63,489 bases of DNA. Source: Spirochaetales bacterium. Lineage in GTDB: Bacteria; Spirochaetota; Spirochaetia; Treponematales; UBA12059. Location of the stretch: the NCBI GenBank assembly GCA_016928955.1, contig JAFGJV010000058.1:1-63489 (forward strand), in the 5' to 3' direction. The notes beneath the pieces were generated by a model. That model was not told the DNA's origin. It was given only the letters and a program-made list of their open reading frames with translations, and ran no database searches. A program made the position numbers and the translations under genes. This document shows positions 7,953 through 29,916 of this stretch, in pieces (position 1 is the stretch's first letter; each line of letters opens with the position of its first letter).

Positions 7953-9133
7953 GGAAATTCCTGGAGCGGGCCATGGACCGCGTGTCCCGGATGAACGAGG
8001 AAGCCATCCGGGGCCTTCTGCGCGTGCTTGTGGACGAGAACGACCGGCTGGAATCCGTCCTGGACTCCATGCTAGACGGCATCGTGGTGTGCGGTGACGA
8101 CCACGTGCCCATCCTGGTCAACAAGGCGGCCGAGCGTTTCCTTCCGCTGGCGCAAGCCGAGCTGTTCGACGAGCCGCTGTGGATGGGCGTGCGCGACGAC
8201 GAGCTGTCGGCCTTTTTCCAGACCGTGCTCCTCGGCGAGGAGAGCGTGCTGGACAGGGAATTCGTCCTTGATTCGCCAGGAGGCGCCCGCATCCTGTCTA
8301 TATGCGTGACGCCGCTCGTGAAGGACAAGCGCATACGCGGGACCCTGGTGCACGTGGAGGAGACCACCGACAAGCGCAAGCGCGAGGCGCGGCTCAGGCG
8401 CGCTGAAAGCCTGGCGTCGCTTACCACCCTGGCCGCTGGCGTTGCCCACGAGATAAAAAACCCCCTGGGGTCCATAAGCATCCACGTCCAGCTGATACGC
8501 AAGGCTTTGGGACAGGCGGCGGGGGAACCGGTCCTCAAATACCTGGGCATAGTCAACGAGGAAATAGACAGACTCAACCGCATCGTGGTGGACTTCCTGT
8601 TCGCCGTGCGACCCATGGACATAGCGCCCATCAACGACGACCCGAACGCCGTGGTGCGGGAGGTGGCCGAATTCATGAGGGCGGAGGCAGCCCAGCAGGG
8701 CGTAACCCTGTCCGAGAAATACGAGCGCTCGCCGCCCCTCCTGTCAATAGACAAACGCTACATCAAGCAGGCCCTCCTCAACCTGGTTAAGAACGCCCTT
8801 GCGGCCATGCCGGACGGGGGAAAGCTCGCACTGAACACAGAGCGCGAAGGCGACGAATTCCGCATCGTGGTGGCGGACACGGGCACGGGCATACCGGAGG
8901 ACAAGCTCGGCAAGATTTTCGAGCCCTATTACACCACCAAGGAAAACGGTACCGGTCTGGGCCTGACCCTGGCGTACAAGATAGTCAAGGAACACGCGGG
9001 CGACATGACCGTCCGCTCCAAGCAGGGCCAGGGCGCCGTGTTCACCATCGGCCTGCCCGTGCCCCAGCGCGAGCGCCGCATGATCACGGACGGAGAATGC
9101 CAGGGCGCGGCCTGCGTTGAGGAGGACTCATGA
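7949..9133 (+). CDS. Cytoplasmic PAS sensor histidine kinase (Hk2-like)
   Basis: PAS-like SMLDGIVV..VNKAAE, H-box VAHEIKNPL, N-box NLVKNA, DTGTGI, FEPYYTTK..GTGLGL; ATG 7949 overlaps the holB stop. Confidence 0.92.
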   Translation: MRKFLERAMDRVSRMNEEAIRGLLRVLVDENDRLESVLDSMLDGIVVCGDDHVPILVNKAAERFLPLAQAELFDEPLWMGVRDDELSAFFQTVLLGEESVLDREFVLDSPGGARILSICVTPLVKDKRIRGTLVHVEETTDKRKREARLRRAESLASLTTLAAGVAHEIKNPLGSISIHVQLIRKALGQAAGEPVLKYLGIVNEEIDRLNRIVVDFLFAVRPMDIAPINDDPNAVVREVAEFMRAEAAQQGVTLSEKYERSPPLLSIDKRYIKQALLNLVKNALAAMPDGGKLALNTEREGDEFRIVVADTGTGIPEDKLGKIFEPYYTTKENGTGLGLTLAYKIVKEHAGDMTVRSKQGQGAVFTIGLPVPQRERRMITDGECQGAACVEEDS

Positions 9134-10500
9134 AGTTCAGCGTCCTGGTGGTGGACGACGAGAAAAACATACGCGAGGGCCTGGCGGAATACCTGCGGCT
9201 TGAAGGCTACGACGTGGCGGTGGCCGCGGACGGCAAGGAAGGCCTTGCATCCGTCGAGCGCGGCCTGGCGGACCTGGTCATTACCGACCTGCGCATGCCC
9301 GCGCTTTCCGGCTCGGAACTGCTCAAGGAAATCGTGTCGCGCTACCCGTCGGTACCGGTCATCGTGCTCACCGGGCACGGCACGGTTGAAGACGCGGTAG
9401 AGGCCATGCGCTCGGGCGCCTACGACTTCATCACCAAGCCGGTCAACCTTGACCACCTGTCCCTCCTGGTGCGCAGGGCTCTTGAACGCACGGAACTGGC
9501 CAGGCGCAACGAGGAGCTGTTGAGGGAGGTTGAGAGCCAGAAGCGCTTTTCAAGCATCATCGGCAAGACGCAGTCCATACAGCGCATCTTCGAGCTGGTG
9601 CGGCGCGTGGCCCCGACCAAGGCCAGCGTCCTCATAACCGGCGAGTCCGGCGTGGGCAAGGAACTGGTTGCCGACGCCCTCCATAACCTGTCGCCCCGGG
9701 CGGACAAGCCCTTCATAAAGGTGCACTGCGCCGCGCTGGCCGAATCCCTTCTGGAGAGCGAGCTCTTTGGCCACGAGAAGGGCTCGTTTACCGGCGCCGC
9801 GGGCCGCAAGAAAGGCCGCTTTGAGCTAGCCAATGAAGGCACGCTGTTCCTGGACGAGATAGGGGAAATCAACCAGAACGTCCAGATCAAGATCCTGCGC
9901 GTCCTTCAGGAAAAGCGTTTTGAGCGCGTGGGCGGCGAGGACACCGTTGAGGTGGACGTGCGCGTGGTTGCGGCCACCAACCGCGACCTCAAGGCGGAAA
10001 TCGCCAAGGGCACGTTCAGGGAAGACCTGTACTACCGCCTGAACGTGGTGAACATACACGTGCCGCCCCTGCGCGAGCGCAAGGACGACATACCCCTACT
10101 GGCGCAGGCCTTCCTCCGCGAGTTCGCCGACGAGAACGGCAAGGCGGTCAGCGGCTTTGACCCCAAGGCCAGGGCTGCCATCTACGACTATCCCTGGCCG
10201 GGCAACGTTCGCGAGCTGCGGAACTGCGTGGAGAGCGCCGTGGTCATGGCATCAGGCGACGTGATAGGCCTGGACGACCTGTCGCCGGGCATACGCGGCC
10301 AGGAGGACGAGGGCGTGGTGCGCCTGCCCCTGGGCTCGAGCCTGGCGGAGGCAGAACGCGTCCTCATCAGGGACACGCTGGCCGCCCAGGGCGGCAACAA
10401 GAGCCGCACCGCCGAGATACTCGGGATAGGGAGAAAAACCCTCTACCAGAAAATCCAGGAATACGGGCTGGATAACGCTCCGGAGGAAACGGCCACCTGA
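9130..10500 (+). CDS. Sigma54-dependent response regulator (REC-AAA+-Fis HTH; Rrp2/AtoC-like)
   Basis: VVDDE, DLRMP, GESGVGKE, ESELFGHEKGSFTGA, FREDLYYRLNV, WPGNVREL, C-terminal HTH. Confidence 0.95.
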   Translation: MKFSVLVVDDEKNIREGLAEYLRLEGYDVAVAADGKEGLASVERGLADLVITDLRMPALSGSELLKEIVSRYPSVPVIVLTGHGTVEDAVEAMRSGAYDFITKPVNLDHLSLLVRRALERTELARRNEELLREVESQKRFSSIIGKTQSIQRIFELVRRVAPTKASVLITGESGVGKELVADALHNLSPRADKPFIKVHCAALAESLLESELFGHEKGSFTGAAGRKKGRFELANEGTLFLDEIGEINQNVQIKILRVLQEKRFERVGGEDTVEVDVRVVAATNRDLKAEIAKGTFREDLYYRLNVVNIHVPPLRERKDDIPLLAQAFLREFADENGKAVSGFDPKARAAIYDYPWPGNVRELRNCVESAVVMASGDVIGLDDLSPGIRGQEDEGVVRLPLGSSLAEAERVLIRDTLAAQGGNKSRTAEILGIGRKTLYQKIQEYGLDNAPEETAT

Positions 10501-10506: not shown

Positions 10507-11142
10507 CTACAGATCGGCCCGCTGGTCATCCGCCCGCCGTGACGCGTCGAGCTTGATGCGCATGGCCAAGAGCCTTCGGTCGAGGTTTTCGTCCGAGCAG
10601 GCAGCTTCCACGGCCAGGGCCAGGATGCCGTCGCCCGTTGCCCGGGCCGTTTCCAGAATGGCGTCCCGCACCTCTGCTCCTGAGCGGGCGTAGACGCTGG
10701 CCAGCTCACCCGCTCCCTGGGACAGGCCAAGCGCGGCTGCCGAGCGCACGCAGGCGGCCACAACACGGGGATCGGGGTCCGACAAGCCCTTGCGCAGGAA
10801 CAGCCACGCGCTCCTTTTTCCGGACAAGCCCAGATGCCGGGCCGCTTCGGCGCGTTCTGAGGGATCGCCAGAGCCCGCAAGGCGCGTGCCCAGCTCAAAA
10901 AGGTCCATGGATCTGGCCAGCGGAGCGAGGGCGGCTGCCAGGCGCGGGCGGATGTCCTTGCTCGAGGCCGCGTTCAGGCTTTTGTACGCGCGGCTCACGC
11001 GCTGGAAGCGCCTTGCCGTGGCCGGATTGCGCGATGCGTCAGGATGGAAGCGAAGCGTCAGGTTCCTGTACGCGCGCTTTATCTCGGCGGACGGGACACC
11101 CGGTTCCAACCCAAGCGCGGCGAAAAGGACTTCATCCCTCAT
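10507..11142 (-). CDS. J-domain protein with C-terminal HEAT-like repeats
   Basis: LGLEPGVPSAEIKRAYRNLTLRFHPD with intact HPD, then HEAT-type units DPSERAEAARHLG, LSDPDPRVVAACVRSAAALG, AEVRDAILE. Confidence 0.82.
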   Translation of the reverse strand: MRDEVLFAALGLEPGVPSAEIKRAYRNLTLRFHPDASRNPATARRFQRVSRAYKSLNAASSKDIRPRLAAALAPLARSMDLFELGTRLAGSGDPSERAEAARHLGLSGKRSAWLFLRKGLSDPDPRVVAACVRSAAALGLSQGAGELASVYARSGAEVRDAILETARATGDGILALAVEAACSDENLDRRLLAMRIKLDASRRADDQRADL

Positions 11143-11179
11143 ACACGTTCCTCAATGGTTCATCTGCTGCGGCGGTCAG

Positions 11180-12865
11180 TCACCGCTCGGCAAGGGCCCG
11201 GCTGTCCAGTTCCGCGCACAGCGCCTCCAGTAGCTCCGCGCACTGCCCCGCCTTATCTGTATCGGCACGGGCGGCGGCGTCCCGAGCGCTTTCCACAAGC
11301 TCATTGAGCTCGGCCGTCATGGCGGGGTCCAGGGACATGCCGTCCGAAAGCCTCCGGGCGCGGTCTGAGAGCGCAAGGGCGCGCTCCACGGGCGACAGCT
11401 CGGGATCTCTGCCACCAAGAAAATTTACCGTCTGGTCAGCGCCGCTGTCCAGGTCCCTTGCCCTGACCGTGAGCATGTCGCTTTCATCAAGCTCGAATTC
11501 TATCTGTATGCGCGGTACGCCGCGCTTGGCCGGCCGTATGCCCGACAGGAGAAAACGGCCCACGGACAGCCTGCCGACGCCAGCGCCGGCCTGGTCGGGA
11601 TCGTCGGCCTGGAGCACGTGTATCTCCACCGAGCTTTGGTAGTCTTCCACCGTGGTGAACATGCGCTGGCCGATTGCCGGCAGGGCCTGGTTCTTGTGGA
11701 TCAGCTCGAGCATGCCGCCGCCGTCTATTTCCAAGCCCAGGATCCGGGACGACACGTCCGTAAATTCAAAGCCGGGGGCCGTAAGCGCCAGGTCTCCGGA
11801 CAGGCGCGCAGCTTCTATGGCCGCGCCCAGCGCCACTATTTCCTCCGGGTTGACCCTAGGGTCCGCGGCGCGGCCGCACAGATCCCCAAGGAGGCGGGAA
11901 ACCAGGGGCATTCTAGACGAGCCGCCTGATAGCACCAGGGCATCCACCGCGCCTGGTTCGACCCCGGCCGCCTTCAGTACGGACCTGGTGATGGCCATGG
12001 TGCGGCCAACGACCGGCGCCGCAAGGTCCTCCAAAACATCCCTCGCGATGCCGACGGCGGGATGCGTCACGCCCTCGGGGCCGCGGAGGAAAGGAACGGC
12101 CACGGTCGCGCTGTGCAGTTCCGACAGCTCTATTTTGGCCGCCTCGCAGCGGTCCAGGAGCACGCGCCTGAGGTAGGGATCGGCGTCCGGATCTATACCG
12201 TAGTCGCGTTTGAAACATTCGGCAACGTGGGCGTACAGGGCCTGGTCCAGGTCCATGCCGCCCAACTGGTCGTCGCCCTCAGAGGCCAGGACCCTGCTCA
12301 CCGGCCCCCTGCTCTTGAGTACGGTGGCGTCAAAGGTCCCGCCGCCAAAATCGTACACCAGGACCAGGCGATCCTTTGAGTCCTTGGGCAGGGTCCACGC
12401 GCGGGCCAGGGCCGCGGCCGTCGGCTCGTTCATGACGCGCAGCACCTTGAAGCCCGCCATGGCGGCGGCGTCGCGGACGCTGCGGCGCTGAGGCTCGGAA
12501 AAGCGCGCCGGCACGGTGACCACCGCGTCCCTCGGCTCAAAGCCCAGGTAGGCTGCCGCGTCCTTCCTGACCTTGGACAGCAGCGCGGCGGCAAGCTCCT
12601 CGGGCCGGTGGCTTTTCCCCTTGAGCGACAGGCTATCCGCCCTGCCCAGCTTGCGCTTCAGGCCCAGCACCACGGACTCTGGGTCGGCCAAGGCCTGGTT
12701 GCGGGCCGACGACCCGTACACCAGCTCCCCGGAATCCAGGACAGCCAGGGCCGACGGGGTCAGGCGCTCGCCCCTGGCGTTGGGTATGAGCACGGGCTCA
12801 GCGCCGTCCAGCCATGCGCACAAAGTGTTGGTGGTGCCAAAATCCAGGCCTACGGCGCCCGGCAT
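11180..12865 (-). CDS. Divergent Hsp70 (DnaK-family) chaperone, ~561 aa, short C-terminal lid
   Basis: GLDFGTTNT, VVTVPARF, NEPTAAALA, VYDFGGGTFD, LGGMDLD, EAAKIELS, LSGGSSRMP, FTTVEDYQ, GVPRIQIEF. Confidence 0.92.
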   Translation of the reverse strand: MPGAVGLDFGTTNTLCAWLDGAEPVLIPNARGERLTPSALAVLDSGELVYGSSARNQALADPESVVLGLKRKLGRADSLSLKGKSHRPEELAAALLSKVRKDAAAYLGFEPRDAVVTVPARFSEPQRRSVRDAAAMAGFKVLRVMNEPTAAALARAWTLPKDSKDRLVLVYDFGGGTFDATVLKSRGPVSRVLASEGDDQLGGMDLDQALYAHVAECFKRDYGIDPDADPYLRRVLLDRCEAAKIELSELHSATVAVPFLRGPEGVTHPAVGIARDVLEDLAAPVVGRTMAITRSVLKAAGVEPGAVDALVLSGGSSRMPLVSRLLGDLCGRAADPRVNPEEIVALGAAIEAARLSGDLALTAPGFEFTDVSSRILGLEIDGGGMLELIHKNQALPAIGQRMFTTVEDYQSSVEIHVLQADDPDQAGAGVGRLSVGRFLLSGIRPAKRGVPRIQIEFELDESDMLTVRARDLDSGADQTVNFLGGRDPELSPVERALALSDRARRLSDGMSLDPAMTAELNELVESARDAAARADTDKAGQCAELLEALCAELDSRALAER

Positions 12866-12866: not shown

Positions 12867-13502
12867 TCAATTCTCCGGCAGACGCCTGGCGTCTTCCATG
12901 GCAATGGCGATTTCCACCTCGGCCAACGGCGCGCCGAGTTCCGAGGCTATCAGCTCCGCGGAAAAGCCCTTGCGCCTGAGCGATGCTACCTTCTCCGGAA
13001 AGGGCACGTCCACGGGCAAGGCCTTTGACGCGAACCTTATAAAAGGCACGTCCGGCGCTACCCCGGCCTGTGGACCTTCCCTGCTGGCCTTGCGGTATGC
13101 CTCTACCTGACGGCTTTCCGGCACCTGGGCCGCATCGTCAGCTTTGCGTTCCGGGGCACGCTGCTCCGGCCTGGAGGTCTGGACGATCCGCGGCGCCGTT
13201 CCCTGGCTTCTGGACGGCTCGCGTGCGGGGGAACTGGGTGCTTCCCTGGCCAGGAGGGAGATGCGTTTGTCGGCTTCCTTCAAAGCATCCTTCAGCTGTC
13301 CAAGCCGGTCCTCTACCAGCGTCACGTTCCTGTCCGTTGTACCGTCAAGCTCTGTGATCAGCGCCGAGATTTCTTTGCGAGCGGACGCCAGCGCCTCGTC
13401 CGCGTTGAGGTAGCGGCGTACGGTTGCCCTGGTCCAGGCCACCATGACCAGGCACAGAGCCACGAATACGGCCAATTCGATCAGCGTGGAACCCATGCTC
13501 AC
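12867..13502 (-). CDS. SwrB-like flagellar-associated protein (TM, coiled coil, C-terminal HTH)
   Basis: N-terminal TM helix, heptad region, low-complexity linker, KGFSAELIASELGAPLAEVEIAI HTH; located at the distal end of the fla operon. Confidence 0.55.
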   Translation of the reverse strand: MSMGSTLIELAVFVALCLVMVAWTRATVRRYLNADEALASARKEISALITELDGTTDRNVTLVEDRLGQLKDALKEADKRISLLAREAPSSPAREPSRSQGTAPRIVQTSRPEQRAPERKADDAAQVPESRQVEAYRKASREGPQAGVAPDVPFIRFASKALPVDVPFPEKVASLRRKGFSAELIASELGAPLAEVEIAIAMEDARRLPEN

Positions 13503-13825
13503 CCCGATATGTCTATGTGGCCGCCAAGCGCGGGATCCTGCACGGTTTCCTGTTCCGCCTGGTCCCGCTCCTGTTCTTTTTTCTGCTTGTTTTCGGACTG
13601 CGCGCCGGCGGCGGTTTCGTCCTGCTTGTCCTTGACGGCTCCTGGGCCGCTTTTGTCCTCTTCCAGCTTTTTGACGCTGGACGCCTCTTCCACCGCCTTT
13701 TTCTGCATGGTGGCGCCAAGGAGGGCTTTCTGGGCCACGGCCGCGTCGCGCTCCGCCGCGTTCTGCCGCGCTACCTTGTCCATCTGCGTGAACAAGGTCT
13801 GGAGGTCAATCGGCTTTATGGGCAT
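13499..13825 (-). CDS. Hypothetical charged protein downstream of fapA
   Basis: MPIKPIDLQ start and DPALGGHIDISG end; overlaps both neighbours. Confidence 0.7.
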   Translation of the reverse strand: MPIKPIDLQTLFTQMDKVARQNAAERDAAVAQKALLGATMQKKAVEEASSVKKLEEDKSGPGAVKDKQDETAAGAQSENKQKKEQERDQAEQETVQDPALGGHIDISG

Positions 13826-15794
13826 CTGGCGGCCCCCGTTTCAGAAGCTCGTCGTCCAGCTCCTCGTATTTGGTCGTTTTTATCATCATGTTCTCTAGGA
13901 AGAAGGTCAGGCCCTTGTACTCGTTCTTGATGTCCTCGCGGATGTCCCGGATGATGATCTTTGCGCCCGGGTATATGCGGCTGGACACGCTGACCTTGCC
14001 CCGCACCTTCAGGTTGTTGAGATAGAGGTGGATGGATTCGTACTCTGACTTGAGGGCGCGGGCCTCGGAACCCGCTTCCTCTCGCCGCTGGGTCAGGTCC
14101 TCCAGGATGGCTTCCTTGTCCTCCGGCAGGGTCTTGCGCTGGCGCTTCATCTCGGCGAGCGTGGATATGTTCTTGTCCAGCTCGTCTATCTGCTTCTCAA
14201 GCAGCTTGAGCTTGACGTCCAGCTCGTCCAGGCGCGCCTTGCTCTTGGGATCGCTTCCGACCTCCAGGATGGTTTCGGCGCCGCCGGACGCGCTGCCTAT
14301 GATCTTGGCGTTGATCTCCTCGCATGCGCGGTAGCGTCCGCCTATGATGGTTCCGTGCTTGCCGCCCGAGCATACGATGCGCTTGTCGGCCGTCACGTCC
14401 GAATTGATGATGCTCTGGCTGACCACCACGTTGTCGCCCGCCACCACGATGGCGTTCTCTATGAATTTTGCCCACACGTTCTTGCCCGCGGTGATGGCGC
14501 CCGCGCCCTTGCCGGCAACGCCCTGGTGGATGATGATATCGCCCTCGGCCGACAGCTCCGATTTCCCAACGTTGCCGCGCACCTCGATGTTGCCTGTGGC
14601 CTTGACCGAGAAACCGTCCTCAACGTTGCCGTTGACGATGATAGTGCCCAGGAAGAACTGGTTGCCCGTCTTGAGGTCTATGTTGCCGTTGATGGTGTAC
14701 ACGGTCTCGACGTTGATCTTGCCGCCTATGTAGGTGGCCTCCCCGTTGACGTCCGCTATGATGCTGAGTCCGTCGTCGCCCGCGTGCACGTTCTTGCCCA
14801 GGGGCAAAGGCTGGTCTCGGCCGTTCCTGGCCGGGAGAAGCTTGCCGGTAACCGTCCGGCCAGGCACGCCCTGCTTGGCAGGTATCTTCTTGGCCAGCAC
14901 CTGGCCTTCCACCACGTTCTGTACCAGGTGGAGTTCCTTGTAGTCCACGCGCCCGTTTTTTTCCTCTATGTGCACCTTGGAGCGGTCCGTCTCGAACAGG
15001 TACTGTATCTTGGCGTCCTCGCCGTTCTGCGGCTTCTGCCCCTGCGCCACCATGACGGGCACCTTGTAGCTTGGCTGGTCCTCAAGTCCCTGGAGAGCGT
15101 CGTCCAGCACGCCGTGCACGATCTTGTTGTTGCGGAGGTAGGCCAGGATGATTTCGCGCGACAGGTCGCAGCCGCCCGGCTGGGGCGGCGTCAGGATGAC
15201 GTACGCTTCCATATCCTGCGCGGCTATATCCACGGTCAAGAGCGCGTCGGCCGCCGGATTGGCCACAAAACTGCCCACCGGCACCCACTCTCCGCGGGCT
15301 TCCTTGACAACGCGACTGACCAGTTCCTGGCTGAAATCGTGGACGGCCCGCGAGTGGAGCTTGTCCACCGCCTGTTTGTCCGTGGCGCGCTTGCCCCGGC
15401 CCGTGGGCTTGGTCACCTTGAGCAGGGCGCCATCCGGTGCTAGGCGGACGTAGGCCTGACCGTCTAGGTCCTTCTGGGCTTCCACCACGGGCATGGCCGT
15501 TTCAAGGCCTGGCTCAAACACCGGGGCCGCCTGGGTTTCCACCTTCTTCTTGGCCGCCGACTGATAAACGCTCAGCTTCCAGGGCTTGCGGCCCATCCCG
15601 AGCATACCCGGCGCGCCTTTTTCCAGCACCTCGTATTCAAGGCGGGCCACGGCGCAGTCCAACTGGACCGCCGCGCTCTGCAGCGCGTCCTCAAGCGTGA
15701 CGCCTTCCACAACGATGCTGCGCTTGTCGCCATCCTCGTCCAGGTAGCGGCGCATGAGCTCGCGGATGGCGTCCATGCCGATGCGCTCGGCCAT
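13806..15794 (-). CDS. fapA: FapA (DUF342) flagellar assembly protein with N-terminal Jag_N-like domain
   Basis: GRVDYKEL..VQNVVEGQVLA, beta-helix repeats (GNVEDGFSVKATGNIEVRG), coiled coil, IYPG; ATG at 15794. Confidence 0.85.
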   Translation of the reverse strand: MAERIGMDAIRELMRRYLDEDGDKRSIVVEGVTLEDALQSAAVQLDCAVARLEYEVLEKGAPGMLGMGRKPWKLSVYQSAAKKKVETQAAPVFEPGLETAMPVVEAQKDLDGQAYVRLAPDGALLKVTKPTGRGKRATDKQAVDKLHSRAVHDFSQELVSRVVKEARGEWVPVGSFVANPAADALLTVDIAAQDMEAYVILTPPQPGGCDLSREIILAYLRNNKIVHGVLDDALQGLEDQPSYKVPVMVAQGQKPQNGEDAKIQYLFETDRSKVHIEEKNGRVDYKELHLVQNVVEGQVLAKKIPAKQGVPGRTVTGKLLPARNGRDQPLPLGKNVHAGDDGLSIIADVNGEATYIGGKINVETVYTINGNIDLKTGNQFFLGTIIVNGNVEDGFSVKATGNIEVRGNVGKSELSAEGDIIIHQGVAGKGAGAITAGKNVWAKFIENAIVVAGDNVVVSQSIINSDVTADKRIVCSGGKHGTIIGGRYRACEEINAKIIGSASGGAETILEVGSDPKSKARLDELDVKLKLLEKQIDELDKNISTLAEMKRQRKTLPEDKEAILEDLTQRREEAGSEARALKSEYESIHLYLNNLKVRGKVSVSSRIYPGAKIIIRDIREDIKNEYKGLTFFLENMMIKTTKYEELDDELLKRGPPDAHKAD

Positions 15795-15795: not shown

Positions 15796-16584
15796 TTACA
15801 CGATACCCTTCCGCAGGTTGGTGAGGCGGGCACGCAGGCGCAGTATGGCCTTGGTATGCAGCTGGCTGACGCGAGATTCCGTCACCTCAAGCACCTTGCC
15901 GATTTCTTTCAGGGTGAGTTCCTCGTAATAGTAGAGCACCAGCACCTTCTTTTCCTTGTCGGGCAGGTCCTGTATGGCTGACACTATGACGCGGCGGATT
16001 TCCTCCCGTTCCATGATGGAGTCGGGATTCATGCTTGAGGGGCTCTCTATGCTGTCGCCCAGGGTGATCTTCTCGTTCTCGTCGGCCGCGTACCATATGT
16101 CGCTCAGGGACATGATGGCCGTGCCCGATATCTTGAGCATGGTCCGGGAAAACTCGTCGTTGCTCATGCCAATGGATTTGGCGATTTCCGAATCACTGGC
16201 CGGGCGGCCGAGCTTGGATTCCACCTCCATGATGGCTTCTTCTATCTCGCGCGATTTCTGCCGGACCGAACGCGGCACCCAGTCCATGCTGCGCAGTTCG
16301 TCGAAAATGGCCCCGCGGATCCGGGTAACGGCGTAGGTCTTGAATTTGACGTTCTTCTCCGGGTCGTACTTGTCTATGGCGTCTATCAGGCCGAACACGC
16401 CAAAGCCAACCAGGTCGTCAAAATCCACCGACTGGGGCATGTTGGCCGCCACCTTCCCGGCCACATATTTGACCAGGGGGGCATACTGCTTGATGAAGGC
16501 CTCGCGTATCACCGGATCGCGGCCTTTTTTGTAAGCAGCCCAGAGCTCTTCCTCAGTGTGATGCTCAAGCAGGGGGTTGTTCAT
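15796..16584 (-). CDS. fliA: Flagellar sigma factor sigma28 (FliA/WhiG)
   Basis: FKTYAVTRIRGAIFDELRSMDWVPRSVR, LTLKEIGKVLEVTESRVSQLH. Confidence 0.96.
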   Translation of the reverse strand: MNNPLLEHHTEEELWAAYKKGRDPVIREAFIKQYAPLVKYVAGKVAANMPQSVDFDDLVGFGVFGLIDAIDKYDPEKNVKFKTYAVTRIRGAIFDELRSMDWVPRSVRQKSREIEEAIMEVESKLGRPASDSEIAKSIGMSNDEFSRTMLKISGTAIMSLSDIWYAADENEKITLGDSIESPSSMNPDSIMEREEIRRVIVSAIQDLPDKEKKVLVLYYYEELTLKEIGKVLEVTESRVSQLHTKAILRLRARLTNLRKGIV

Positions 16585-16590: not shown

Positions 16591-17331
16591 TTACCCTTTC
16601 TGGTCCCTGCGCAGTAAGGTCTGCACCGCTTTGGCCAGGGCCGCTGGATCACCGGCGGCCGAATCAGAACCGCCCGATACGGGGGCGTATATTGGCGACT
16701 CTTCCTCGCCCTGGTCGCCATCCGACACCACCTCTGAGAAGGAATCGGACAGGGTATCCAGGTCCGGAAGGACATCCAGCTCGTCCAGGGCCACCGACGG
16801 CCGCGGGGGCCTGGACACCGGCTCGGGCTGGTCGTTTTTGGGGATGAGACTTTCGGCCTGTATGGCTTCCACGTCGCTTTCTATGTCGGCCAGGTCGTCG
16901 TCCGCCCGGCGCTCCGGCCTCTCGGCTGCCATGACCCTGTCCAGGACGGGTATGTGCTCCGGAGCCTCTCCGGACGAACCCGCCAGCTCACCTTCCGCCA
17001 TGGCCACGCTTTCGGCGCTATCCGCGCTTTCCGCGCCAGGCCCGGACACTGCCGGCGCCTCGTCGCCAGGAAGGACTATGTTGACGCGCTGTCCGGGCGC
17101 TTCCCGCTCCAACGCGTCCGCGGGCGCCTGGCCGTCCTCAAAAAGCTCCGGCATGAAGCGCCTGAGCACGGCTATGGCCCCGTACGCCATGAGGGCAAAG
17201 AGGGCCCCCAAGAGCACGGCCCTGAGGACAAGTGCCCCCAGGGGAACGCGTGAGAATGCGGCAACGGTGGCTGAAAGGACGGCAGCGCCGAGCCCCGCCC
17301 CGGTGGACAGGCGCAGGTCAGCACCCGTCAC
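16591..17331 (-). CDS. flgV: FlgV-like protein (two TM helices, acidic disordered linker, C-terminal helix)
   Basis: Position between flhG and fliA; two N-terminal hydrophobic helices; GTG 17331 follows GGAGG (alternative ATG at 17346). Confidence 0.65.
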   Translation of the reverse strand: MTGADLRLSTGAGLGAAVLSATVAAFSRVPLGALVLRAVLLGALFALMAYGAIAVLRRFMPELFEDGQAPADALEREAPGQRVNIVLPGDEAPAVSGPGAESADSAESVAMAEGELAGSSGEAPEHIPVLDRVMAAERPERRADDDLADIESDVEAIQAESLIPKNDQPEPVSRPPRPSVALDELDVLPDLDTLSDSFSEVVSDGDQGEEESPIYAPVSGGSDSAAGDPAALAKAVQTLLRRDQKG

Positions 17332-17354
17332 GTTGATCCCTCCCATATCCTGGT

Positions 17355-17383
17355 AGAGTAAGGCAAAGCGACTGCCTCGTCAA
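17355..17383 (-). promoter_or_regulatory. Internal sigma70 promoter upstream of flgV-fliA
   Basis: Minus strand TTGACG-N17-TACTCT. Confidence 0.6.
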
Positions 17384-17489
17384 GCTTGGGCGCTGAGCCA
17401 AGATCGACGAAAACGCCACGCGAGTCGGCAAAAAATCAGATGATGGGCCAATGAGGGCGGCCGCGCCGGGCCGGGTGGCGGATTCCCGC

Positions 17490-18359
17490 TCAGGCGTCCT
17501 TGCCGAACAGCTTGCGTATCATGCGGCTGAGTCCGTGGTCGCTGGAAAACTCCGTCTTCTCTATCCGGCTCACCAGATGCTGCACGGATATGGCCGCCTT
17601 GGATTTCGGCTCCTGGACCAGGAAGGGACGCTGCCTGAGCACTGACATGGGGACCACCGGGTCGTCGTATATGCAGCCGAGATATTCCACCTTGAGGTTG
17701 AGGAACTGCCCGGATATGTTGATGATGCGCTCGGCCACCTTGCGGCCCTCGGTCACGTTCTTGACGCGATTGACCACCAGCTTGAGTCCTATGTTCAGGT
17801 TCTCCACCTCGGTGGCTATTATTTTGATGATACCGTACGCGTCGGTGATGGCCGTGGGCTCAGGCGTGGTGATGATCACCGCGTCGTCCGCCGCCGCCAC
17901 AAAGGACAGCACGTTGCTGGACACGCCGGCGCTTGTGTCTATGATGATGATATCGGCGTTGGACAGGGTGTACAGCTCGGTAATGAAATTCTGGCGCTCT
18001 TCCTCCGACAGGTTGGCTATCTTGGAAAAGCCGGACGCCCCCGCCAGGATCTGTATGCCGTACTCCGTGTCCAGGAGGATTTCCCGCATTGATTTCTGCT
18101 TGCGGATCACATGGTACAGGTTGTACTTGGGAATCATGTTGACCATGATGTTGACGTTAGCCAGCCCAAGGTCAGCGTCCATGACCACCACGCGCTTGCC
18201 GAGCCTGGCATAGGCTATGGCCATGTTCACGGCCAGGTTGGTCTTGCCCACCCCGCCCTTGCCGCTGGCCACGGTGATGACGCGCGTCTTCTTGGCGCTA
18301 TCGCGGGCCTGGGGTTTGGCTTTCATAAGCTCACGCAGTTTCTGTGCCTGGTCTTCCAT
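17490..18359 (-). CDS. flhG: MinD-like ATPase FlhG
   Basis: MEDQAQKLR, SGKGGVGKT, DADLGLAN, TTPEPTAITDAY. Confidence 0.95.
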   Translation of the reverse strand: MEDQAQKLRELMKAKPQARDSAKKTRVITVASGKGGVGKTNLAVNMAIAYARLGKRVVVMDADLGLANVNIMVNMIPKYNLYHVIRKQKSMREILLDTEYGIQILAGASGFSKIANLSEEERQNFITELYTLSNADIIIIDTSAGVSSNVLSFVAAADDAVIITTPEPTAITDAYGIIKIIATEVENLNIGLKLVVNRVKNVTEGRKVAERIINISGQFLNLKVEYLGCIYDDPVVPMSVLRQRPFLVQEPKSKAAISVQHLVSRIEKTEFSSDHGLSRMIRKLFGKDA

Positions 18360-18409
18360 CTGGTCATCTCCACGGCGCGGTCGGTCCCGCGCTCACGGCG
18401 TCCACGGTT

Positions 18410-19597
18410 TCAGGAACGCGAGCGTTCCGGCAGGACTCCGTACCTTTCTTCTAGTTTCGGCCGATCCGGGGCAAAACCTTCGAGATTTAAGAGAAATCGG
18501 AGGGGATGGGCCCGTTCTATGTCCATGGGCACCTTCTGCCCGTCAGTGATCCACGCGGCCGGTTTGTTGGCCACCGCCAAGGCTGAAAGCACGTTGCCCA
18601 CCCTGCCCGTCTCGTCCATCTTGGTCACCACCACGCCGCGATACCTAAAGGGCTCGAACTGGCGGAAAATGTCCAACATATCCTGCGTCTTGGTGGTGGC
18701 GGACACGGCCAGGTACACCTCGGCTCCCGGCCCACACGCGTCCAGAAGCTCCTGCATCTCAGCCAGGCGCACGGCGTCCCTCGGGCTCTTGCCTATGGTA
18801 TCCACCAGTATGAGATCCGTGTCTCGATACATGGCCAGGGTGTCCTTCATGTCCTTAACGGTTTCCACCACGGACACGGGCATGCTCATGATGGACGCGT
18901 ATTTCTCGATCTGCTGGAGGGCTCCTATGCGGAACGAGTCTATGGTCAGAAGCCGTATCTCCTTGGCCGGCTGGGCGGACAAGCCCAGCTTGTGTATGGC
19001 CGCCAGCTTGGCTATGGTCGTGGTTTTGCCCACGCCCGTAGGACCCACCAGCACGATCACGCGTGGCCGGGCTGGCTTGGGATCGGCTGTCACGGACACC
19101 GTATCGCCTATCCATTCCAGCACGGCCCTGCGGACGCGCAGATCGTCGTCCAGGTCCTCAAGGGAAAATTCGGCGCGCGCCTTGGCCACCAGCTCGGAGC
19201 GGTACAGGGGGGAAAAATCGTTGGTCTCCAGGAGCTCTTCCAGGGCCATCAGCGTGGGATGCTCGCCCTCGGCCTGAGCCGCCGCCCCGCCCTCGGCCAT
19301 GATCTCCTTGAGCTCGCGCACTTCGGACAGGACTTCCTGCAGGGTGCGCTCGTGGTTCATTTTTTCCAGGAGCTTCCGCTTCTCGTCTTCCATGTCGACG
19401 CGCTTGCGCTCGGTCTCCCGTATCGAGTCGTCGCGAAGGTAGAACGTTATCTCGACGCCTTCCCGGGCGAACAGGCCCATAAAGCCGCCTTGCCTCACGG
19501 TCCGGTGGCTCAGCACCTGGGCCGCGTCCCCGTAGCGGGCCCGTATCCTCTCCAGCGCTTCTCTGTGGGTGGATCCTTGCTCGACCAGATACTGCAT
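18410..19597 (-). CDS. flhF: SRP-family GTPase FlhF
   Basis: [41 protein letters not shown]. Confidence 0.95.
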   Translation of the reverse strand: MQYLVEQGSTHREALERIRARYGDAAQVLSHRTVRQGGFMGLFAREGVEITFYLRDDSIRETERKRVDMEDEKRKLLEKMNHERTLQEVLSEVRELKEIMAEGGAAAQAEGEHPTLMALEELLETNDFSPLYRSELVAKARAEFSLEDLDDDLRVRRAVLEWIGDTVSVTADPKPARPRVIVLVGPTGVGKTTTIAKLAAIHKLGLSAQPAKEIRLLTIDSFRIGALQQIEKYASIMSMPVSVVETVKDMKDTLAMYRDTDLILVDTIGKSPRDAVRLAEMQELLDACGPGAEVYLAVSATTKTQDMLDIFRQFEPFRYRGVVVTKMDETGRVGNVLSALAVANKPAAWITDGQKVPMDIERAHPLRFLLNLEGFAPDRPKLEERYGVLPERSRS

Positions 19598-19600
19598 GCT

Positions 19601-21691
19601 TTACCCTTCCACCTTGATCTCGCCGACGGCCTCCACCTGGACATCGGGAGCTATTTCCGGCACGGACAGGACCACCAGGTCCGGGATCTCGCGTTCTGTG
19701 CTGGATTTGACCAGGGCCCTGGCCGCCTCTGAGCACAGCACCAGCGGGAAGAGCCCCTGCTTCTGCACAGCGGTCACAGCCAGGGTCAGGGCCTTGATCC
19801 ACTGGCGCTGCGCCGCCGGTTCGAGCGCGGCCAGGGGACCCGTGGGCGTGTCCACCCTGCTGTCTATGATCTTTTGCTCGAGCGACGGCTCGACGGTAAG
19901 GACGCGCAGGGTCTTGTCAGCGTCCGCGTACTGCAGGCATATCTGCCGCCCCAGGGCCTGCCTGGCCTTCTCTACCAGGAAACCTATGTCCTTGGTCACG
20001 CCGGCGTAGTCGGCCAGGGTTTCCAGGATGGCCACCAGGTTGCGTATGGACACTTGCTCGCGCAAGAGCCCCTGCAGGACCTTCTGGGCGTCGCCCAGGG
20101 ACAGGTGCTTCTGCGCCTCGTCCACCACGGCAGGATAGTCCTTGCGGAGGGCGTCCAGCATGGACTGGACCTCCTGCCTGCCCAGGATGTCGGCGGCGTA
20201 GCGCTTGATGATCTCGGTCAGGTGGGTGGCCACGATGCTCGGGGCGTCCACCACCGTGTAGCCGGCGCGCTCGGCCTTGTCCCTGGACGGTTCGCCTATC
20301 CACACGGCCGGCAGGCCGAAGGCCGGATCCTTGGTTTTCTCGCCTGATATTTCCTCGGACACGCCGCCCGGGTTGATGGCCAGGTAGTGCCCCAGGCGGA
20401 TGACGCCGCGGCCCACCTCAACGCCCCTGATCTTGAAACAGTATTCAGACGGTTCCAGATGCATGTTGTCGATGATGCGTATGCGGGGCACCACCAGGCC
20501 CATGTCCAGGGCGCTTTCCTTGCGTATCCTGGTTACCCGCTCCAGGAGCTCCGCGCCCTTGTCCTTGTCCACCAGGGGGATGAGGCCGTAGCCCAGTTCC
20601 AGGCTGATGGGATCCAGCGGCACCACCGGGGACAGCTCCTGGGGCTCTGACTTGCGCTGGCCGCTCTCCGCAGCCTTGAGTTTGGCCTTGTCCGCTTCAA
20701 GGGTCTGCTTTTTGGTCAGCCTGTAGGCCAAAAAGGCCATGGCGCCGGCCAGCGGCAGGAGCACGTACCACGGAAAGCCGGGGAGCAGTGCCATGGCCGC
20801 CAGCACTCCCGAGCCCACCCAGTAGATGCGCGCGTTCTGGGAGAACTGCTTGGTCACGTCCATGCCGAAGGTGCCCTGGCTGTTGGCGCGCGTGACGATG
20901 ATGCCCGTGGCGGTGGACATGAGAAGGGCCGGAAGCTGGGACACCAAGCCATCGCCTATGGTCAGGCCTATGTAGGTATTCAAGGCGCCCTGGAAATTTT
21001 CGCCGTGGATCACCATGCCCACCACAAAGCCGCCAATCAGGTTGATCAGGCTCACAAAAATGCCCACGGTCACGTTGCCGGACACGAATTTGCTGGCGCC
21101 GTCCATCTGTCCAAAGAAGTCCACCTCGCGCTGGACTTCCTCCTTGCGCTGACGAGCCTCTTCCTCAGTAATGGCGCCCGAGTTGTACTCGGTCTCTATG
21201 GACATCTGCTTGACCTGGAGGCCGTCCAGTGTAAAGCGTGCCGCCACCTCCGCTATGCGCGTGGCGCCCTTGGTGATGACGATGACCTGCACGGCCACGA
21301 TGACGATGAATATGATGAAGCCGACGACCAGGCCTTCCGTGCCGGTCGCGCCGACCACGAAGCTGGAAAAGGCCCGCACGATCCTGCCGTCAAAGCGCTC
21401 GCCCAGGGTCAGGATGAGGCGCGTCGAGCTGATGTTGAGCGCCAGGCCGAAAATCGTCGTCACCAGGATCATGGTGGGAAAGATGGAAAATTCTATGGCC
21501 TTGCGCGTATAGAGCGTTATGAGGAGGATCAGCAGGGCCAGGGCCAGGTTGAGCGACATCAGGGCGTCCAGGAGGACCGTGGGCACCGGTATGATGATCA
21601 TGAGGACCACGGCCACCGCGCCTATGGCCACCCCGTATTCCGATATGTTGCCCAGAAGGGCCGCGCGGGTTCCCCGCGTTTGGTCAGACAT
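19601..21691 (-). CDS. flhA: Flagellar export gate protein FlhA
   Basis: ITKGATRIAEVAARFTLD, FFGQMDGASKFV, TIGDGLVSQLPAL, EQVSIRNL. Confidence 0.97.
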   Translation of the reverse strand: MSDQTRGTRAALLGNISEYGVAIGAVAVVLMIIIPVPTVLLDALMSLNLALALLILLITLYTRKAIEFSIFPTMILVTTIFGLALNISSTRLILTLGERFDGRIVRAFSSFVVGATGTEGLVVGFIIFIVIVAVQVIVITKGATRIAEVAARFTLDGLQVKQMSIETEYNSGAITEEEARQRKEEVQREVDFFGQMDGASKFVSGNVTVGIFVSLINLIGGFVVGMVIHGENFQGALNTYIGLTIGDGLVSQLPALLMSTATGIIVTRANSQGTFGMDVTKQFSQNARIYWVGSGVLAAMALLPGFPWYVLLPLAGAMAFLAYRLTKKQTLEADKAKLKAAESGQRKSEPQELSPVVPLDPISLELGYGLIPLVDKDKGAELLERVTRIRKESALDMGLVVPRIRIIDNMHLEPSEYCFKIRGVEVGRGVIRLGHYLAINPGGVSEEISGEKTKDPAFGLPAVWIGEPSRDKAERAGYTVVDAPSIVATHLTEIIKRYAADILGRQEVQSMLDALRKDYPAVVDEAQKHLSLGDAQKVLQGLLREQVSIRNLVAILETLADYAGVTKDIGFLVEKARQALGRQICLQYADADKTLRVLTVEPSLEQKIIDSRVDTPTGPLAALEPAAQRQWIKALTLAVTAVQKQGLFPLVLCSEAARALVKSSTEREIPDLVVLSVPEIAPDVQVEAVGEIKVEG

Positions 21692-21712
21692 TCACTCTCC
21701 TTGGGCTCCGCA

Positions 21713-22918
21713 TTATGCGCTCAAGGCGGCCAGCTTGTCCGCCAGTTTCTTGTCGATCTTGGCCACGTGGGCCAGCACTCCCGCTATGGCCTGGTAATAC
21801 TCTTCGGGCACGGGGTCTCCCACCTCTGCCGACGCGTACAGAGCGCGCGCCAGGGGCTTGTTTTCCACCACCGGCACCCCGTGCTCGCGCGCTATGGCCC
21901 GTATGCGCAGGGCCACCTCGTCCTGGCCTTTGGCGCTGACCACGGGTACGGCGGCCACCTGGGGATTATACTCTATGGCCACCGCGTAATGCGTCGGGTT
22001 GGTGACCACCACGTCGGCTTTGGGCACGTTGGCCGCCATGTTCCTGGACAAAAGCTCGCGCATGCGTTCTCGGAGGCGTCCTTTTATTTTTGGATCACCC
22101 TCGAACATCTTGTACTCTTCCTTCACTTCCTGCTTGGTCATCTTGAGGTTTTTCTTGAAGAGCCGCTTCTGGTACAGATAATCGGGCACGGCCAGGGCCA
22201 GGAGGAGGAGCGCCGCCTCCAGGATGATGCGCAGGGCCACAGAGGACACGTGGATGGTGGACGTCCATACCGTGGCGCTGAACAGGCGCGTCATGGCCGG
22301 GATCTCAGCCACTATGTTGAGCACGGCAATGACCAGGATGGCCGCTATCTTGATCAGGTTCTTGGCCAGGCCATACAAGCCCTCCCCTGAGAACACGGTG
22401 CGCTTCAAGTACTGCCCGAAGTGCGGAACCACGCGCTTGAAATCCGGCTTGAGGGGTTTGGTGGTAAACAAAAAGCCCACCTGGAGGAGGTTCCCGAACA
22501 AGGCTGCCAGCACGGCCACCACGGCCACGGGCAGGACCAGCCGCGCGAAATGGGACAGAAAGGCCGCGCCGAGTATGGCCCCTTCGGTCACGGGATCCAG
22601 CTCAACGGCCACCTCAAGGAACCAGCGGAGCATGTTCTGGATGTTCATGAAGATCCAGGGAGCGAAGACGGCCAAGGCGACCACGGGCAGCATGAGGCCC
22701 ACCGCGCCGACCAGGTCCTGGCTTTTGGCCACGCGGCCTTCCTCGCGTGCCTTGCGCAGGCGGTACTCGGTGGGGTCTTCGGTTTTTCCCTCGTCCTCGG
22801 GCGCGAACCACTGCAGGTGCACCCAGGCCAAGCCGGCGGGCAATGCGGCCGCGGCTCCGAGCCCGTCCGCCGGGTCCGCCTCTCGGACGGCGTCTCCAGA
22901 CATACGCAGAGCCCTCAT
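21713..22918 (-). CDS. flhB: Flagellar export switch protein FlhB
   Basis: KTEDPT..RLRKAREEG, KMTKQEVKEE..EGDP, NPTH autocleavage motif; ATG 22918 overlaps the fliR stop. Confidence 0.96.
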   Translation of the reverse strand: MRALRMSGDAVREADPADGLGAAAALPAGLAWVHLQWFAPEDEGKTEDPTEYRLRKAREEGRVAKSQDLVGAVGLMLPVVALAVFAPWIFMNIQNMLRWFLEVAVELDPVTEGAILGAAFLSHFARLVLPVAVVAVLAALFGNLLQVGFLFTTKPLKPDFKRVVPHFGQYLKRTVFSGEGLYGLAKNLIKIAAILVIAVLNIVAEIPAMTRLFSATVWTSTIHVSSVALRIILEAALLLLALAVPDYLYQKRLFKKNLKMTKQEVKEEYKMFEGDPKIKGRLRERMRELLSRNMAANVPKADVVVTNPTHYAVAIEYNPQVAAVPVVSAKGQDEVALRIRAIAREHGVPVVENKPLARALYASAEVGDPVPEEYYQAIAGVLAHVAKIDKKLADKLAALSA

Positions 22919-23697
22919 GAGGCGCCGCCCTTCAGGATGAGCGACATGCTCTGGAACCCGGCGTCCACCAGCTGGGCAAAGGCCTCGATCATGTACGGCA
23001 GGGCCGCCGCCATGATGAAAAAGGCCGTCAGAATGGCCAGGGGAAAACTTTCCGTGAGGAGGTTCATCTGCGGCGCGGCCTTGGCCAGAAGGCCCATGGT
23101 GATGGACACCAGGAGCAGGGATCCGAAAATCGGGAAGGCCAGCACCAGGGCGTCCGCGAACATGGATCCCAGGGAGCCGATCACGAACGCGAACCAATCC
23201 TCCCGGTTCAGGAGCAGGTCCTGGGCCCTGAGCGACACAAAGCTGCGCTGGACGCCTATCAGGAATAGCTTCTGGAAACCGGAAGCGGTGAGAAACACGA
23301 ACATGGCGATCAGGTTCATGAACTGGCCCACGATAGGTATCTCGGTCTGGGCCAGAGGGTCGTAGGTTTCAGACGCGCCAAAGCCCATCTGCAGGGAAAA
23401 AAATTGCCCGGCAGTGGTGAAGGCCGCGTATACCACGTTGAGGAAAAATCCTAATATGATGCCGATCAGGGCCTCGCCCACCACGGCCGCCACGTAGGTG
23501 CCCGCGGAATCAGGCGGTATAAAACCGGCGTCCTTCATCCACGGCAGCACGGCGGCCGCCGCAAATCCGGCCAGCGCGATCTTGGCCGCCTGCGGTATGC
23601 CCTGGTCGGACAGAAGCGGCGCCGTCTCCACCATGGCCAGAATGCGCACGGCCAGCAGGAAAAAGAGGTCGGCGTCAACGACTATCTGGTTCAGCAC
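22915..23697 (-). CDS. fliR: Flagellar export protein FliR
   Basis: GEALIG, AGQFFSLQMGFG, KAAPQMNL. Confidence 0.93.
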   Translation of the reverse strand: MLNQIVVDADLFFLLAVRILAMVETAPLLSDQGIPQAAKIALAGFAAAAVLPWMKDAGFIPPDSAGTYVAAVVGEALIGIILGFFLNVVYAAFTTAGQFFSLQMGFGASETYDPLAQTEIPIVGQFMNLIAMFVFLTASGFQKLFLIGVQRSFVSLRAQDLLLNREDWFAFVIGSLGSMFADALVLAFPIFGSLLLVSITMGLLAKAAPQMNLLTESFPLAILTAFFIMAAALPYMIEAFAQLVDAGFQSMSLILKGGAS

Positions 23698-23719
23698 GGC
23701 CGACTCCCGGCGCCGCCCG

Positions 23720-23989
23720 TCATCCGGTTATCCCCGATATGCGGCTGAACAGGTTGACCGTGTACTCGCCGAGGGTGGAAAACATCCAGCCGGCCAGCAG
23801 GGCGAGCACCAGCATGATGGCCGCTATCTTGGGCACAAAGCTGAGTGTCTGTTCCTGTATGCTCGTGGTTGCCTGTATCACGGCTATAACCAGGCCAACC
23901 ACCAGGGCCGTCAGCAGGATGGGCGCGGAAAGGATGAGTATCTGCCACACGGCGCCGCCCACCAGGGCCGTCACGTCGCCTATGTTCAT
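23720..23989 (-). CDS. fliQ: Flagellar export protein FliQ
   Basis: QATTSIQEQTLSFVPK. Confidence 0.96.
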   Translation of the reverse strand: MNIGDVTALVGGAVWQILILSAPILLTALVVGLVIAVIQATTSIQEQTLSFVPKIAAIMLVLALLAGWMFSTLGEYTVNLFSRISGITG

Positions 23990-24876
23990 TGCAGGTACCT
24001 CAGGAAGGACTCAACCAGCTGCCGCGTCATCAGGCCCCAGCCGTCAACCAGCACGAACAGGATCAGCTTGAAGGGCGTGGATATCATCACGGGCGGCAAC
24101 ATGATCATGCCCATGGACATCAGGGTCGACGCAACGACCATGTCTATGATGATGAAGGGTATGTACAGGAGGATGCCTATTTTGAAAGCCACGGTCAGCT
24201 CGTTCAGGATGAAGGCCGGCACCAGCACGTAGGTGGGCACGTCGGCCAGGGTAGCCGGTTTCCCCAGTCCCCTCATGTCCATGAACAGGCGTATGTTTGC
24301 CGGGTCGTTTTTCATCTGGGCGTACATGAACAGGCGGAAGGGTTTCTCGGCTTCCTGGTACGCCTCGGTAACGGACAGCTGGCCGTCCATCATGGGCTTG
24401 ATGCCCTTGTCGTACGCCTCTTCAAAGGTTGGCCACATGATGAAAAGGGTCAGGAAAAAGGCTATGCCCATGAGGACCTGGCCCGGCGGCACCTGCTGGA
24501 GAGACAGGGCGCGCTTCACAAAATCCAGGACGATGGATATGCGGAGGAAGCTCGTTACCAGAATAATGATGCTCGGCGCCAGCGACAGCACCGTCAGGAG
24601 TAAGAGAAGCTGGAGGCTGAAGGCCACTTCCTTGCCGTCCTGCGGCGAACGCACGGACAGGTCCACAAGGGGTATGGCGGAAGGCAGCTCTGGCAGGGAT
24701 GTGGTGGCGCCGGCCGCGCCTTCAGGGAAATCCCCCTGGGTGGCGGTCGCTGACGGTATGGGCACATCCCTGGCGGTATCCGCCGGCGTGGACGGGAAGG
24801 TCCGGGCGGGTTCCTCCTGCGCCGCGGCCATGCCAGCCGCAAGGACCATGATGCTCAAAATCAGGACATTCCGCAC
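23986..24876 (-). CDS. fliP: Flagellar export protein FliP
   Basis: LSLAPSI..TSFLRI, PAFILNELTVAFKIG, MGMIMLPP..PFKLILFVLVDGW; N-terminal signal peptide. Confidence 0.96.
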   Translation of the reverse strand: MRNVLILSIMVLAAGMAAAQEEPARTFPSTPADTARDVPIPSATATQGDFPEGAAGATTSLPELPSAIPLVDLSVRSPQDGKEVAFSLQLLLLLTVLSLAPSIIILVTSFLRISIVLDFVKRALSLQQVPPGQVLMGIAFFLTLFIMWPTFEEAYDKGIKPMMDGQLSVTEAYQEAEKPFRLFMYAQMKNDPANIRLFMDMRGLGKPATLADVPTYVLVPAFILNELTVAFKIGILLYIPFIIIDMVVASTLMSMGMIMLPPVMISTPFKLILFVLVDGWGLMTRQLVESFLRYLQ

Positions 24877-24904
24877 ATACCCTCCCGAAAGGCCCCGCGT
24901 TTTC

Positions 24905-25477: not shown

Positions 25478-25493
25478 GTTCCCCTCCGGGAGC

Positions 25494-29913: not shown

Positions 29914-29916
29914 CCC

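Follow-up and report, generated by a model that had tools for sequence, protein, structure and literature searches.

A probable dedicated, accessory Hsp70/J-HEAT chaperone pair at the end of a spirochaete flagellar superoperon

A 63,489-nt stretch of contig JAFGJV010000058.1 from a Spirochaetales bacterium (GCA_016928955.1), referred to here as the window, carries on the minus strand an Hsp70 gene and a gene for a J-domain protein with HEAT repeats (J-HEAT) as the last two genes of a flgB-to-fapA flagellar superoperon. It is very likely that the two proteins form a cognate pair. This pair probably serves the flagellar system as a dedicated, accessory chaperone with a cytoplasmic flagellar client; the client is likely motility-related, and we lean towards the HEAT repeats as its recruiter. 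The pair is old, has been inherited and lost together and was retained only where flagella were retained. Genomes, contigs, loci, proteins and families are cited below by our own handles (G, C, L, P and f).

Anatomy of the Hsp70 and J-HEAT proteins

The initial annotation had described an Hsp70 of about 561 aa with intact ATPase motifs starting 1 nt past the stop of the upstream gene, and this was confirmed by the coordinates, by Pfam (HSP70; E 4.9e-117 for the 561-aa protein) and by a residue alignment of the window Hsp70 family with DnaK, HscA and HscC. Residue numbers follow E. coli DnaK and residue roles are those known from DnaK work. The phosphate-1, phosphate-2 and adenosine motifs were intact and the catalytic K70/E171/T199 retained, as were all catalytic residues in the window protein: D8, K70, E147 (=E171), D172 (=D194), T177 (=T199) and P119 (=P143). 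P143, R151, R167, D393, K/R414 and Q442 were also intact. The substrate pocket was still hydrophobic (positions 401, 426, 436, 438, 472, 474), and the arch was changed nearly family-wide (404 mostly D/E/T, 429 mostly V/I; two Borrelia-type rows differ again). The subdomain IB insert (roughly 25 aa) of the DnaK of the same genome was missing, and the subdomain IIB loop (columns N282/Y285), which we take to be the site used by GrpE, was present in the window family, unlike HscC. The lid had rightly been called short, with 74 aa after L507, where the DnaK of E. coli has 132 and that of the same genome 141.

A non-canonical interdomain linker had also been noted. FEFTDVS (vs VLLLDV) was indeed seen in the window Hsp70 but marks only this clade, with the polar linker (positions 390, 392) confined to 12 close clade members and basal family members displaying a hydrophobic, near-canonical V/I-L-V-D linker. 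In these 12 members the acidic residues at 206/217 were lost in most rows, C/S was found at 216, R/N/H at 145 and E/D at 480, and D481 was replaced by S/G alongside the short lid. The J-docking residues E206, E217, F216, L390 and L392 were altered in all 12. Judged from the alignment, the odd linker is clade-specific and accompanied by a remodelled J-docking surface.

The 211-aa J protein matched DnaJ at residues 7-62 (E 1.8e-12) and HEAT_2 at 85-164 (E 1.5e-8), with HPD at residues 33-35 and HEAT repeats at about 80-195. A Pfam scan detected no G/F, zinc-finger or Hsp40 C-terminal domains in it, in agreement with the architecture first proposed (HPD and HEAT without G/F or zinc finger). An HPD-containing J domain without a G/F region or Hsp40 C-terminal domains places it in class C, as defined in the available text of PMC10410713. 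The repeats are of the alphaRep/PBS-lyase type and their best match was to alphaRep binders, a protein-binding scaffold. The C-terminal HEAT region was homologous across all J proteins compared in the phylum-wide set, S37 was invariant in clade J proteins, and the J helix IV motif was found in 0 of 17 clade proteins compared to 17 of 18 basal J proteins. The Atlas clusters nearest the J-HEAT protein (P0002) contained J/HEAT proteins, commonest in Spirochaetota, and the top cluster for a basal family member carried one phylum record only. A Leptospira filament HEAT protein (10LK, E 8.5e-6) was rejected as a relative, the match being generic repeat likeness.

This Hsp70 is not the only dnaK of the genome, as had been anticipated. 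A separate grpE-dnaK-dnaJ cluster (grpE named from sequence and position) is located on contig C25, and this housekeeping DnaK has 34.2% identity to the window Hsp70. Five J-domain proteins and no match to HrcA were found in the genome (99.5% complete). Just ahead of grpE-dnaK-dnaJ, the opposite strand carries an rpoN-like gene (L001:8866-10239). The window Hsp70 missed both DnaK equivalog cut-offs (TIGR02350, 401.5 bits vs 822.55; NF001413, 404.9 vs 648). It has the fold, ATPase site and hydrophobic pocket in common with housekeeping DnaK, but not the grpE-dnaK-dnaJ context, class A DnaJ, hydrophobic linker and full lid and tail of canonical DnaK.

Two well-studied pathway-dedicated Hsp70/J pairs are known in bacteria, HscA/HscB and HscC/DjlC. 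The window pair resembles HscA/HscB in combining a pathway-encoded Hsp70 with a class C J protein that has a helical C-terminal domain, and in its altered substrate arch. However, the HscA cut-off was missed (TIGR01991, 326.8 vs 708.55), HscA has 32.0% identity to the window Hsp70 and groups with DnaK rather than with the window family, and HscB shows no similarity to the window J protein beyond HPD; neither the HscB C-terminal domain nor an isc operon is present, with no isc genes in the Hsp70/J gene context. HscC is alike in its length of about 560 aa, missing IB insert, short lid and co-encoded J protein. It has 29.6% identity to the window Hsp70 and is without the IIB loop retained in the window family, and DjlC has no similarity to the window J protein beyond HPD. 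Neither the DjlB/DjlC-type partner nor the IIB-loop loss that characterizes an HscC system was found. By these comparisons the pair is like HscA/HscB in design, yet its Hsp70 lies outside DnaK and HscA and its partner is not that of HscC. According to the available text of PMC3708813, the E. coli DnaK/DnaJ pathway aids flagellar and chemoreceptor assembly and works on FliN and CheA ahead of HtpG.

Distribution, phylogeny and association with flagella

The gene directly upstream of the Hsp70 had been labelled swrB-like, but gave no family match and is called TM+HTH here, the name used in the FlgV paper. Among 30 relatives, 16 genomes from two families carried full-length orthologues, and the order fapA-yjfB-TM+HTH-Hsp70-J was observed in all 16 wherever the contig was long enough. 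In 17 loci, including the window, the spacing from TM+HTH to Hsp70 was -4 to +4 nt, and the Hsp70 and J genes overlapped in 12 and were at most 5 nt apart in 15. A scan of named genome contigs resulted in 45 J-HEAT loci, with titles naming spirochaetes except for three saying only 'bacterium'. The Hsp70 was upstream of J in 44 of these (the exception ends 352 nt from the contig edge), and TM+HTH, YjfB and FapA were upstream in all 38 loci having at least 2.6 kb of upstream DNA. The proposal that Hsp70 and J make up one module was upheld, the genes being adjacent, often overlapping and lost together. The dN/dS ratio was 0.05-0.29 over 6 Hsp70 comparisons and 0.07-0.23 over 5 of the 6 J-HEAT comparisons, the remaining one being saturated, indicating that the pair is under purifying selection. 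The Hsp70 gene is fragmented at L190:4649-6396 (G110) and L029 (G019), where its neighbours are whole, as a result of decay or assembly error. More Hsp70 matches at 37-39% identity were detected (G016:C10:8458-10065, G009:C71, G006:C17), G016 holding three Hsp70 genes, and an extra 1.6-3 kb separates the J-HEAT gene from ntrC in L060, L061, L063-L065, L075 and L080.

The phylum was covered by a sample of 401 genomes, for which 150 Hsp70 matches were listed and 215 were not, together with a search of five genomes, and 38 second Hsp70s were picked among the matches listed, mainly by short reading frame. Eighteen of these are preceded by flagellar-tail genes; J comes next in 14 of them, two are at contig ends and two are Borrelia-type without J. 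The remainder comprised 13 with J next but located elsewhere, five without an adjacent J, one at a contig edge with J, and one (G315) that is unrelated. The G315 Hsp70 (L175:6515-8245, 576 aa) was removed from the family because it groups with Firmicute DnaK; a J-domain frame lies upstream of it and it is a possible transfer. The flagellar-tail order with the pair recurs in other classes of the phylum. In lineages with copies elsewhere flhG is no longer followed by fliA-fapA, indicating that the operon as a whole was broken up, and in G095 a 184-aa J-HEAT is still beside yjfB-TM+HTH while the Hsp70 has moved away.

Two trees were built by quick IQ-TREE searches with support from the SH-like approximate likelihood ratio test (SH-aLRT) only. 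The 17 operon-linked Hsp70s of the window's class, Borrelia-type included, formed one clade (SH-aLRT 99), and a branch of support 100 set the family apart from HscA and from the DnaK of spirochaetes, E. coli and Firmicutes. Basal family members are 55-59% identical to Firmicute DnaK. HscC, represented by a single sequence, was placed beside the family on a long branch (2.9-3.9), with an approximately unbiased test value (p-AU) of 0.154 for excluding it. One protein labelled as Synergistota (MCD6363487.1) was placed in the tree on the side of the family. A metagenome scan with P0218 for the range outside spirochaetes gave 0 of 80 loci with the family arch signature (one partial, 90% identical gene being unscorable) and none with fapA, and thus did not confirm the pair beside fapA in unrelated bacteria. 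When the J-HEAT profile was run against 1.84 billion representatives, long HEAT-repeat proteins dominated the matches.

FlhA was present in all 44 pair carriers tested. In the window's own family J-HEAT was found in 32 of 35 genomes and FlhA in all 35. In the sister family f4, J-HEAT was found in 23 of 26 FlhA-positive and 0 of 28 FlhA-negative genomes (kin, not independent), and the four FlhA-negative genomes tested for Hsp70 had DnaK only, without a paralogue. In the largely aflagellate family f14, J-HEAT was found in 0 of 41 genomes with a profile that picks up distant family members at 1e-39 and 1e-44, and FlhA in one of 41, as a fragment. The absence predicted for non-flagellated spirochaetes was seen in both families. 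Three aflagellate f4 genomes (G454, G457, G467) read hslU-fliA-ntrC, the blocks on either side of fliA being gone, pair included; the surviving fliA argues against a single blind deletion. Orphan fliA/sigma-28 genes of intact length were located between hslU and ntrC at L184:3388-6949, L185:8611-12246 and L186:8257-11878. Hsp70 and J were also lost jointly in the flagellated genomes G007, G018 and G460. The pair was thus present only with flagella in the genomes tested, as for an accessory factor, with few independent loss events. The suggested co-occurrence with fapA was not supported, since fapA persists in genomes that have lost the pair and copies of the pair lie outside the operon in five families. 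G431 contains a divergent FlhA-like protein (G431:C3:1181065-1182855; 52%, 866-aa frame) and has no flagellar-tail genes beside ntrC (L187).

The initial annotation had placed an extra dnaK of Borrelia (bb0264) at the same position. BB0264/dnaK-1 does follow fapA-yjfB-TM+HTH as the window Hsp70 does. In the available text of the FlgV papers (bioRxiv 10.1101/2024.01.09.574855; PMC11607428) the B. burgdorferi flgB operon, bb0294 to bb0264, shares the window's layout and bb0268 is co-transcribed with bb0272-bb0264; sigma-28 is given as absent from Borrelia in that of the former (bioRxiv 10.1101/2024.01.09.574855). The Borrelia-type consists of two f8 genomes matched to Borrelia by gene order and length. 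Their proteins group with the window Hsp70 (SH-aLRT 99) at 36.8% identity, are shorter than it at 485-498 aa and almost lidless (14-18 aa after L507), and are the only two rows with alanine at R167. Position and tree agree in making the window Hsp70 the apparent orthologue of BB0264/dnaK-1; the comparison does not extend to the partner, J-HEAT being absent from both Borrelia-type genomes examined. BB0264/dnaK-1 is non-essential in culture (8 insertion clones; PMC3485029 supplement), and in mice one clone of the insertion mutant had 7 of 15 sites positive at weeks 2 and 4, the gene being rated intermediate, while no motility result was found there (PMC3485029). The available main text of the FlgV papers (bioRxiv 10.1101/2024.01.09.574855; PMC11607428) does not mention dnaK/Hsp70, and that of surveys of DnaK paralogues and J proteins (PMC11019930, PMC10410713) does not mention spirochaetes or flagella. 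No functional study of bb0264/dnaK-1 or of a flagellar Hsp70/J-HEAT was found in the literature searched, most subscription papers lying outside it, in keeping with the annotation.

Locus layout and neighbouring features

The J gene starts 37 nt past the Hsp70 stop, and upstream of the Hsp70 on the same strand are TM+HTH, the YjfB-position gene, fapA, fliA, the flgV-position gene, flhG, flhF and flhA, continuing to flgB. No grpE or hrcA was found among the neighbouring genes scanned, as annotated, and no CIRCE-like match was found. A promoter and terminator scan was uninformative, with three promoter-like sites compared to 1.6 expected and no terminator-like site on the minus strand from fliA to the J gene.

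Table 1. Genes at the end of the flagellar superoperon and beside it (window positions).
Feature	Position	Strand	Remarks
Convergent NtrC-type regulator, operon-end marker	9130..10500	plus	Stop 6 nt from J gene stop
Class C J-domain protein with HEAT repeats, 211 aa	10507..11142	minus	Pfam
Hsp70 paralogue, 561 aa	11180..12865	minus	ATG at 12865, stop at 11180
TM+HTH membrane protein gene, directly upstream of Hsp70	12867..13496	minus	Name from bioRxiv 10.1101/2024.01.09.574855
YjfB-position gene, 108 aa	13499..13825	minus	Named by position (bioRxiv 10.1101/2024.01.09.574855)
FapA with N-terminal Jag_N domain	13806..15794	minus	Domain match
FliA/sigma-28	15796..16584	minus	Alone retained in aflagellate relatives without the pair
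Remaining flagellar superoperon, flgB to flhA-flhF-flhG-flgV position, hslU ahead	16591..40874	minus	

The ntrC and J genes converge at 10500-10507 without a terminator-like site. The Jag_N of FapA is an EloR/KhpB-type domain. The FlgV-position protein (16591-17346; 251 aa) ends in a long acidic stretch and matched nothing in Pfam or NCBIfam, and a PilZ-domain protein (2012-3469; about 410-485 aa) is encoded close to two-component genes flanking the operon.

A near-identical strain was present in four sludge metatranscriptome runs, all from one study, with one contig spanning 11274-13752 and another 10929-11948. Read depth was flat (about 5) on both strands and contigs reached 140 kb; the reads are therefore likely DNA, and the runs were rejected as transcript evidence.

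Alternatives, proposed mechanism and meaning

Several observations weigh against a dedicated flagellar role. The flagellated genomes G007, G018 and G460 keep the operon up to TM+HTH and are without exactly Hsp70 and J, and because of these clean absences the pair is not needed for flagella. It was not found in f3 (55 genomes), f25 (89) or f30 (34), whose flagellated status is presumed, and J-HEAT was found in only about 40 of the 401 sampled genomes, a count made up of 36 genomes with E 5.2e-22 or lower, many of them already used to build the profile, and of G221, G216, G095 and G182; a HEAT-only profile at E 1e-8 matched 281 of 401, mostly generic HEAT proteins. The pair lies outside flagellar genes in f45, f52, f56 and f57, its two genes are unlinked in f49, and L217, 90% identical to MCD6363487.1, has a non-flagellar gene upstream. 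The shared hslU-fliA-ntrC arrangement is one loss event, not 28, the aflagellate genomes probably reflect two or few loss events, and an operon-end gene can vanish merely through its position. Finally, the bb0264 insertion mutant is merely intermediate in mice, in one clone. Of the motility-specific chaperone system first proposed, a cognate, non-housekeeping pair tied to the flagellar system stands; the losses in flagellated kin make it accessory.

Dispensability in flagellated kin would also suit a further chaperone pair of general or stress type that only happens to close the motility operon and was lost with it by position, as would the copies outside the operon (13 of the 38 loci examined with J adjacent, plus two more), the closeness of basal members to Firmicute DnaK and the upstream gene of L217. 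We consider this unlikely, however, since every copy outside the operon is still in an FlhA-positive genome, aflagellate genomes retain hslU and fliA of the same region but not the pair, the J protein is without the general client-binding domains of DnaJ, and the arch is changed family-wide. A regulatory role on flagellar expression, through sigma-28, an anti-sigma factor or the Jag-domain FapA and comparable to that of DnaK/DnaJ on sigma-32, would fit the position in the fliA-fapA sub-module and the Jag_N domain on FapA. It is rather improbable given that Borrelia, without sigma-28, still has the Hsp70, that fliA persists in aflagellate relatives from which the pair has gone, and that fapA is retained where the pair is lost.

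Two further alternatives concern the proteins themselves. HspBP1 and Fes1 are armadillo proteins acting as Hsp70 exchange factors, and the HEAT domain could similarly have its own Hsp70 as binding partner, perhaps serving as an inbuilt exchange factor, and make no choice of client; the operon has no grpE and both genes are strictly co-inherited. But the IIB loop used by GrpE is present, unlike HscC, the repeats belong to the small alphaRep class, and the G095 J-HEAT stayed by yjfB-TM+HTH while its Hsp70 moved, which leaves this very improbable. Least probable of all is an Hsp70 that is allosterically uncoupled or decaying in the clade and acts as a scaffold only. Y145 changed to R/N/H, polar 390/392, D481 changed to S/G and a short lid in the 12 clade members would be expected of such a protein, as would the split genes in G110 and G019, yet the catalytic residues and P143, R151, R167, D393, K/R414 and Q442 are all retained, the pair is under purifying selection, and J-HEAT is kept in 32 of the 35 own-family genomes.

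For a dedicated, accessory pair, we propose that a folded flagellar protein or assembly of the cytoplasm would be bound by the HEAT repeats, with an intermediate of the C-ring or export apparatus, or else the TM+HTH neighbour, as the most likely candidate, whereupon the HPD J domain would trigger ATP hydrolysis by its own Hsp70. The Hsp70 would hold a short exposed segment in its hydrophobic pocket under the changed arch (M404 to D/E, A429 to V/I), and the short lid may allow fast release, so that few clients would be remodelled or handed on without bulk refolding. Changes on both docking faces in the clade may insulate the pair from DnaK/DnaJ, and nucleotide exchange would probably be by the housekeeping GrpE or spontaneous. 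Housekeeping DnaK can apparently take over, which would explain the repeated loss of the pair. Sigma-28 is unlikely as sole client, because Borrelia is without it and aflagellate relatives retain fliA.

More tentatively, the family may stand next to DnaK, HscA and HscC as a bacterial Hsp70 subfamily not described before, already present in the ancestor of Spirochaetota, whose insulated J-HEAT partner remodels a periplasmic flagellar motor or export-gate intermediate and of which Borrelia dnaK-1 is a reduced remnant; an ATP-driven flagellar assembly or disassembly factor of this kind would be comparable to auxilin/Hsc70 on clathrin. No motility-dedicated Hsp70/J pair was found described in the literature searched. 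This work adds the test of loss within one family, the fliA gene left as an orphan, the clean absence of both genes from flagellated relatives, and a change of both docking faces that is specific to the clade. If the dedicated role is true, an ATP-dependent chaperone step would be added to spirochaete flagellar assembly and Borrelia dnaK-1, with its intermediate mouse phenotype (PMC3485029), would gain a testable role. The basal pairs close to the canonical type, the clade with its remodelled surfaces and the Borrelia form without partner or lid would then provide a natural series for the evolution of Hsp70-J specificity.

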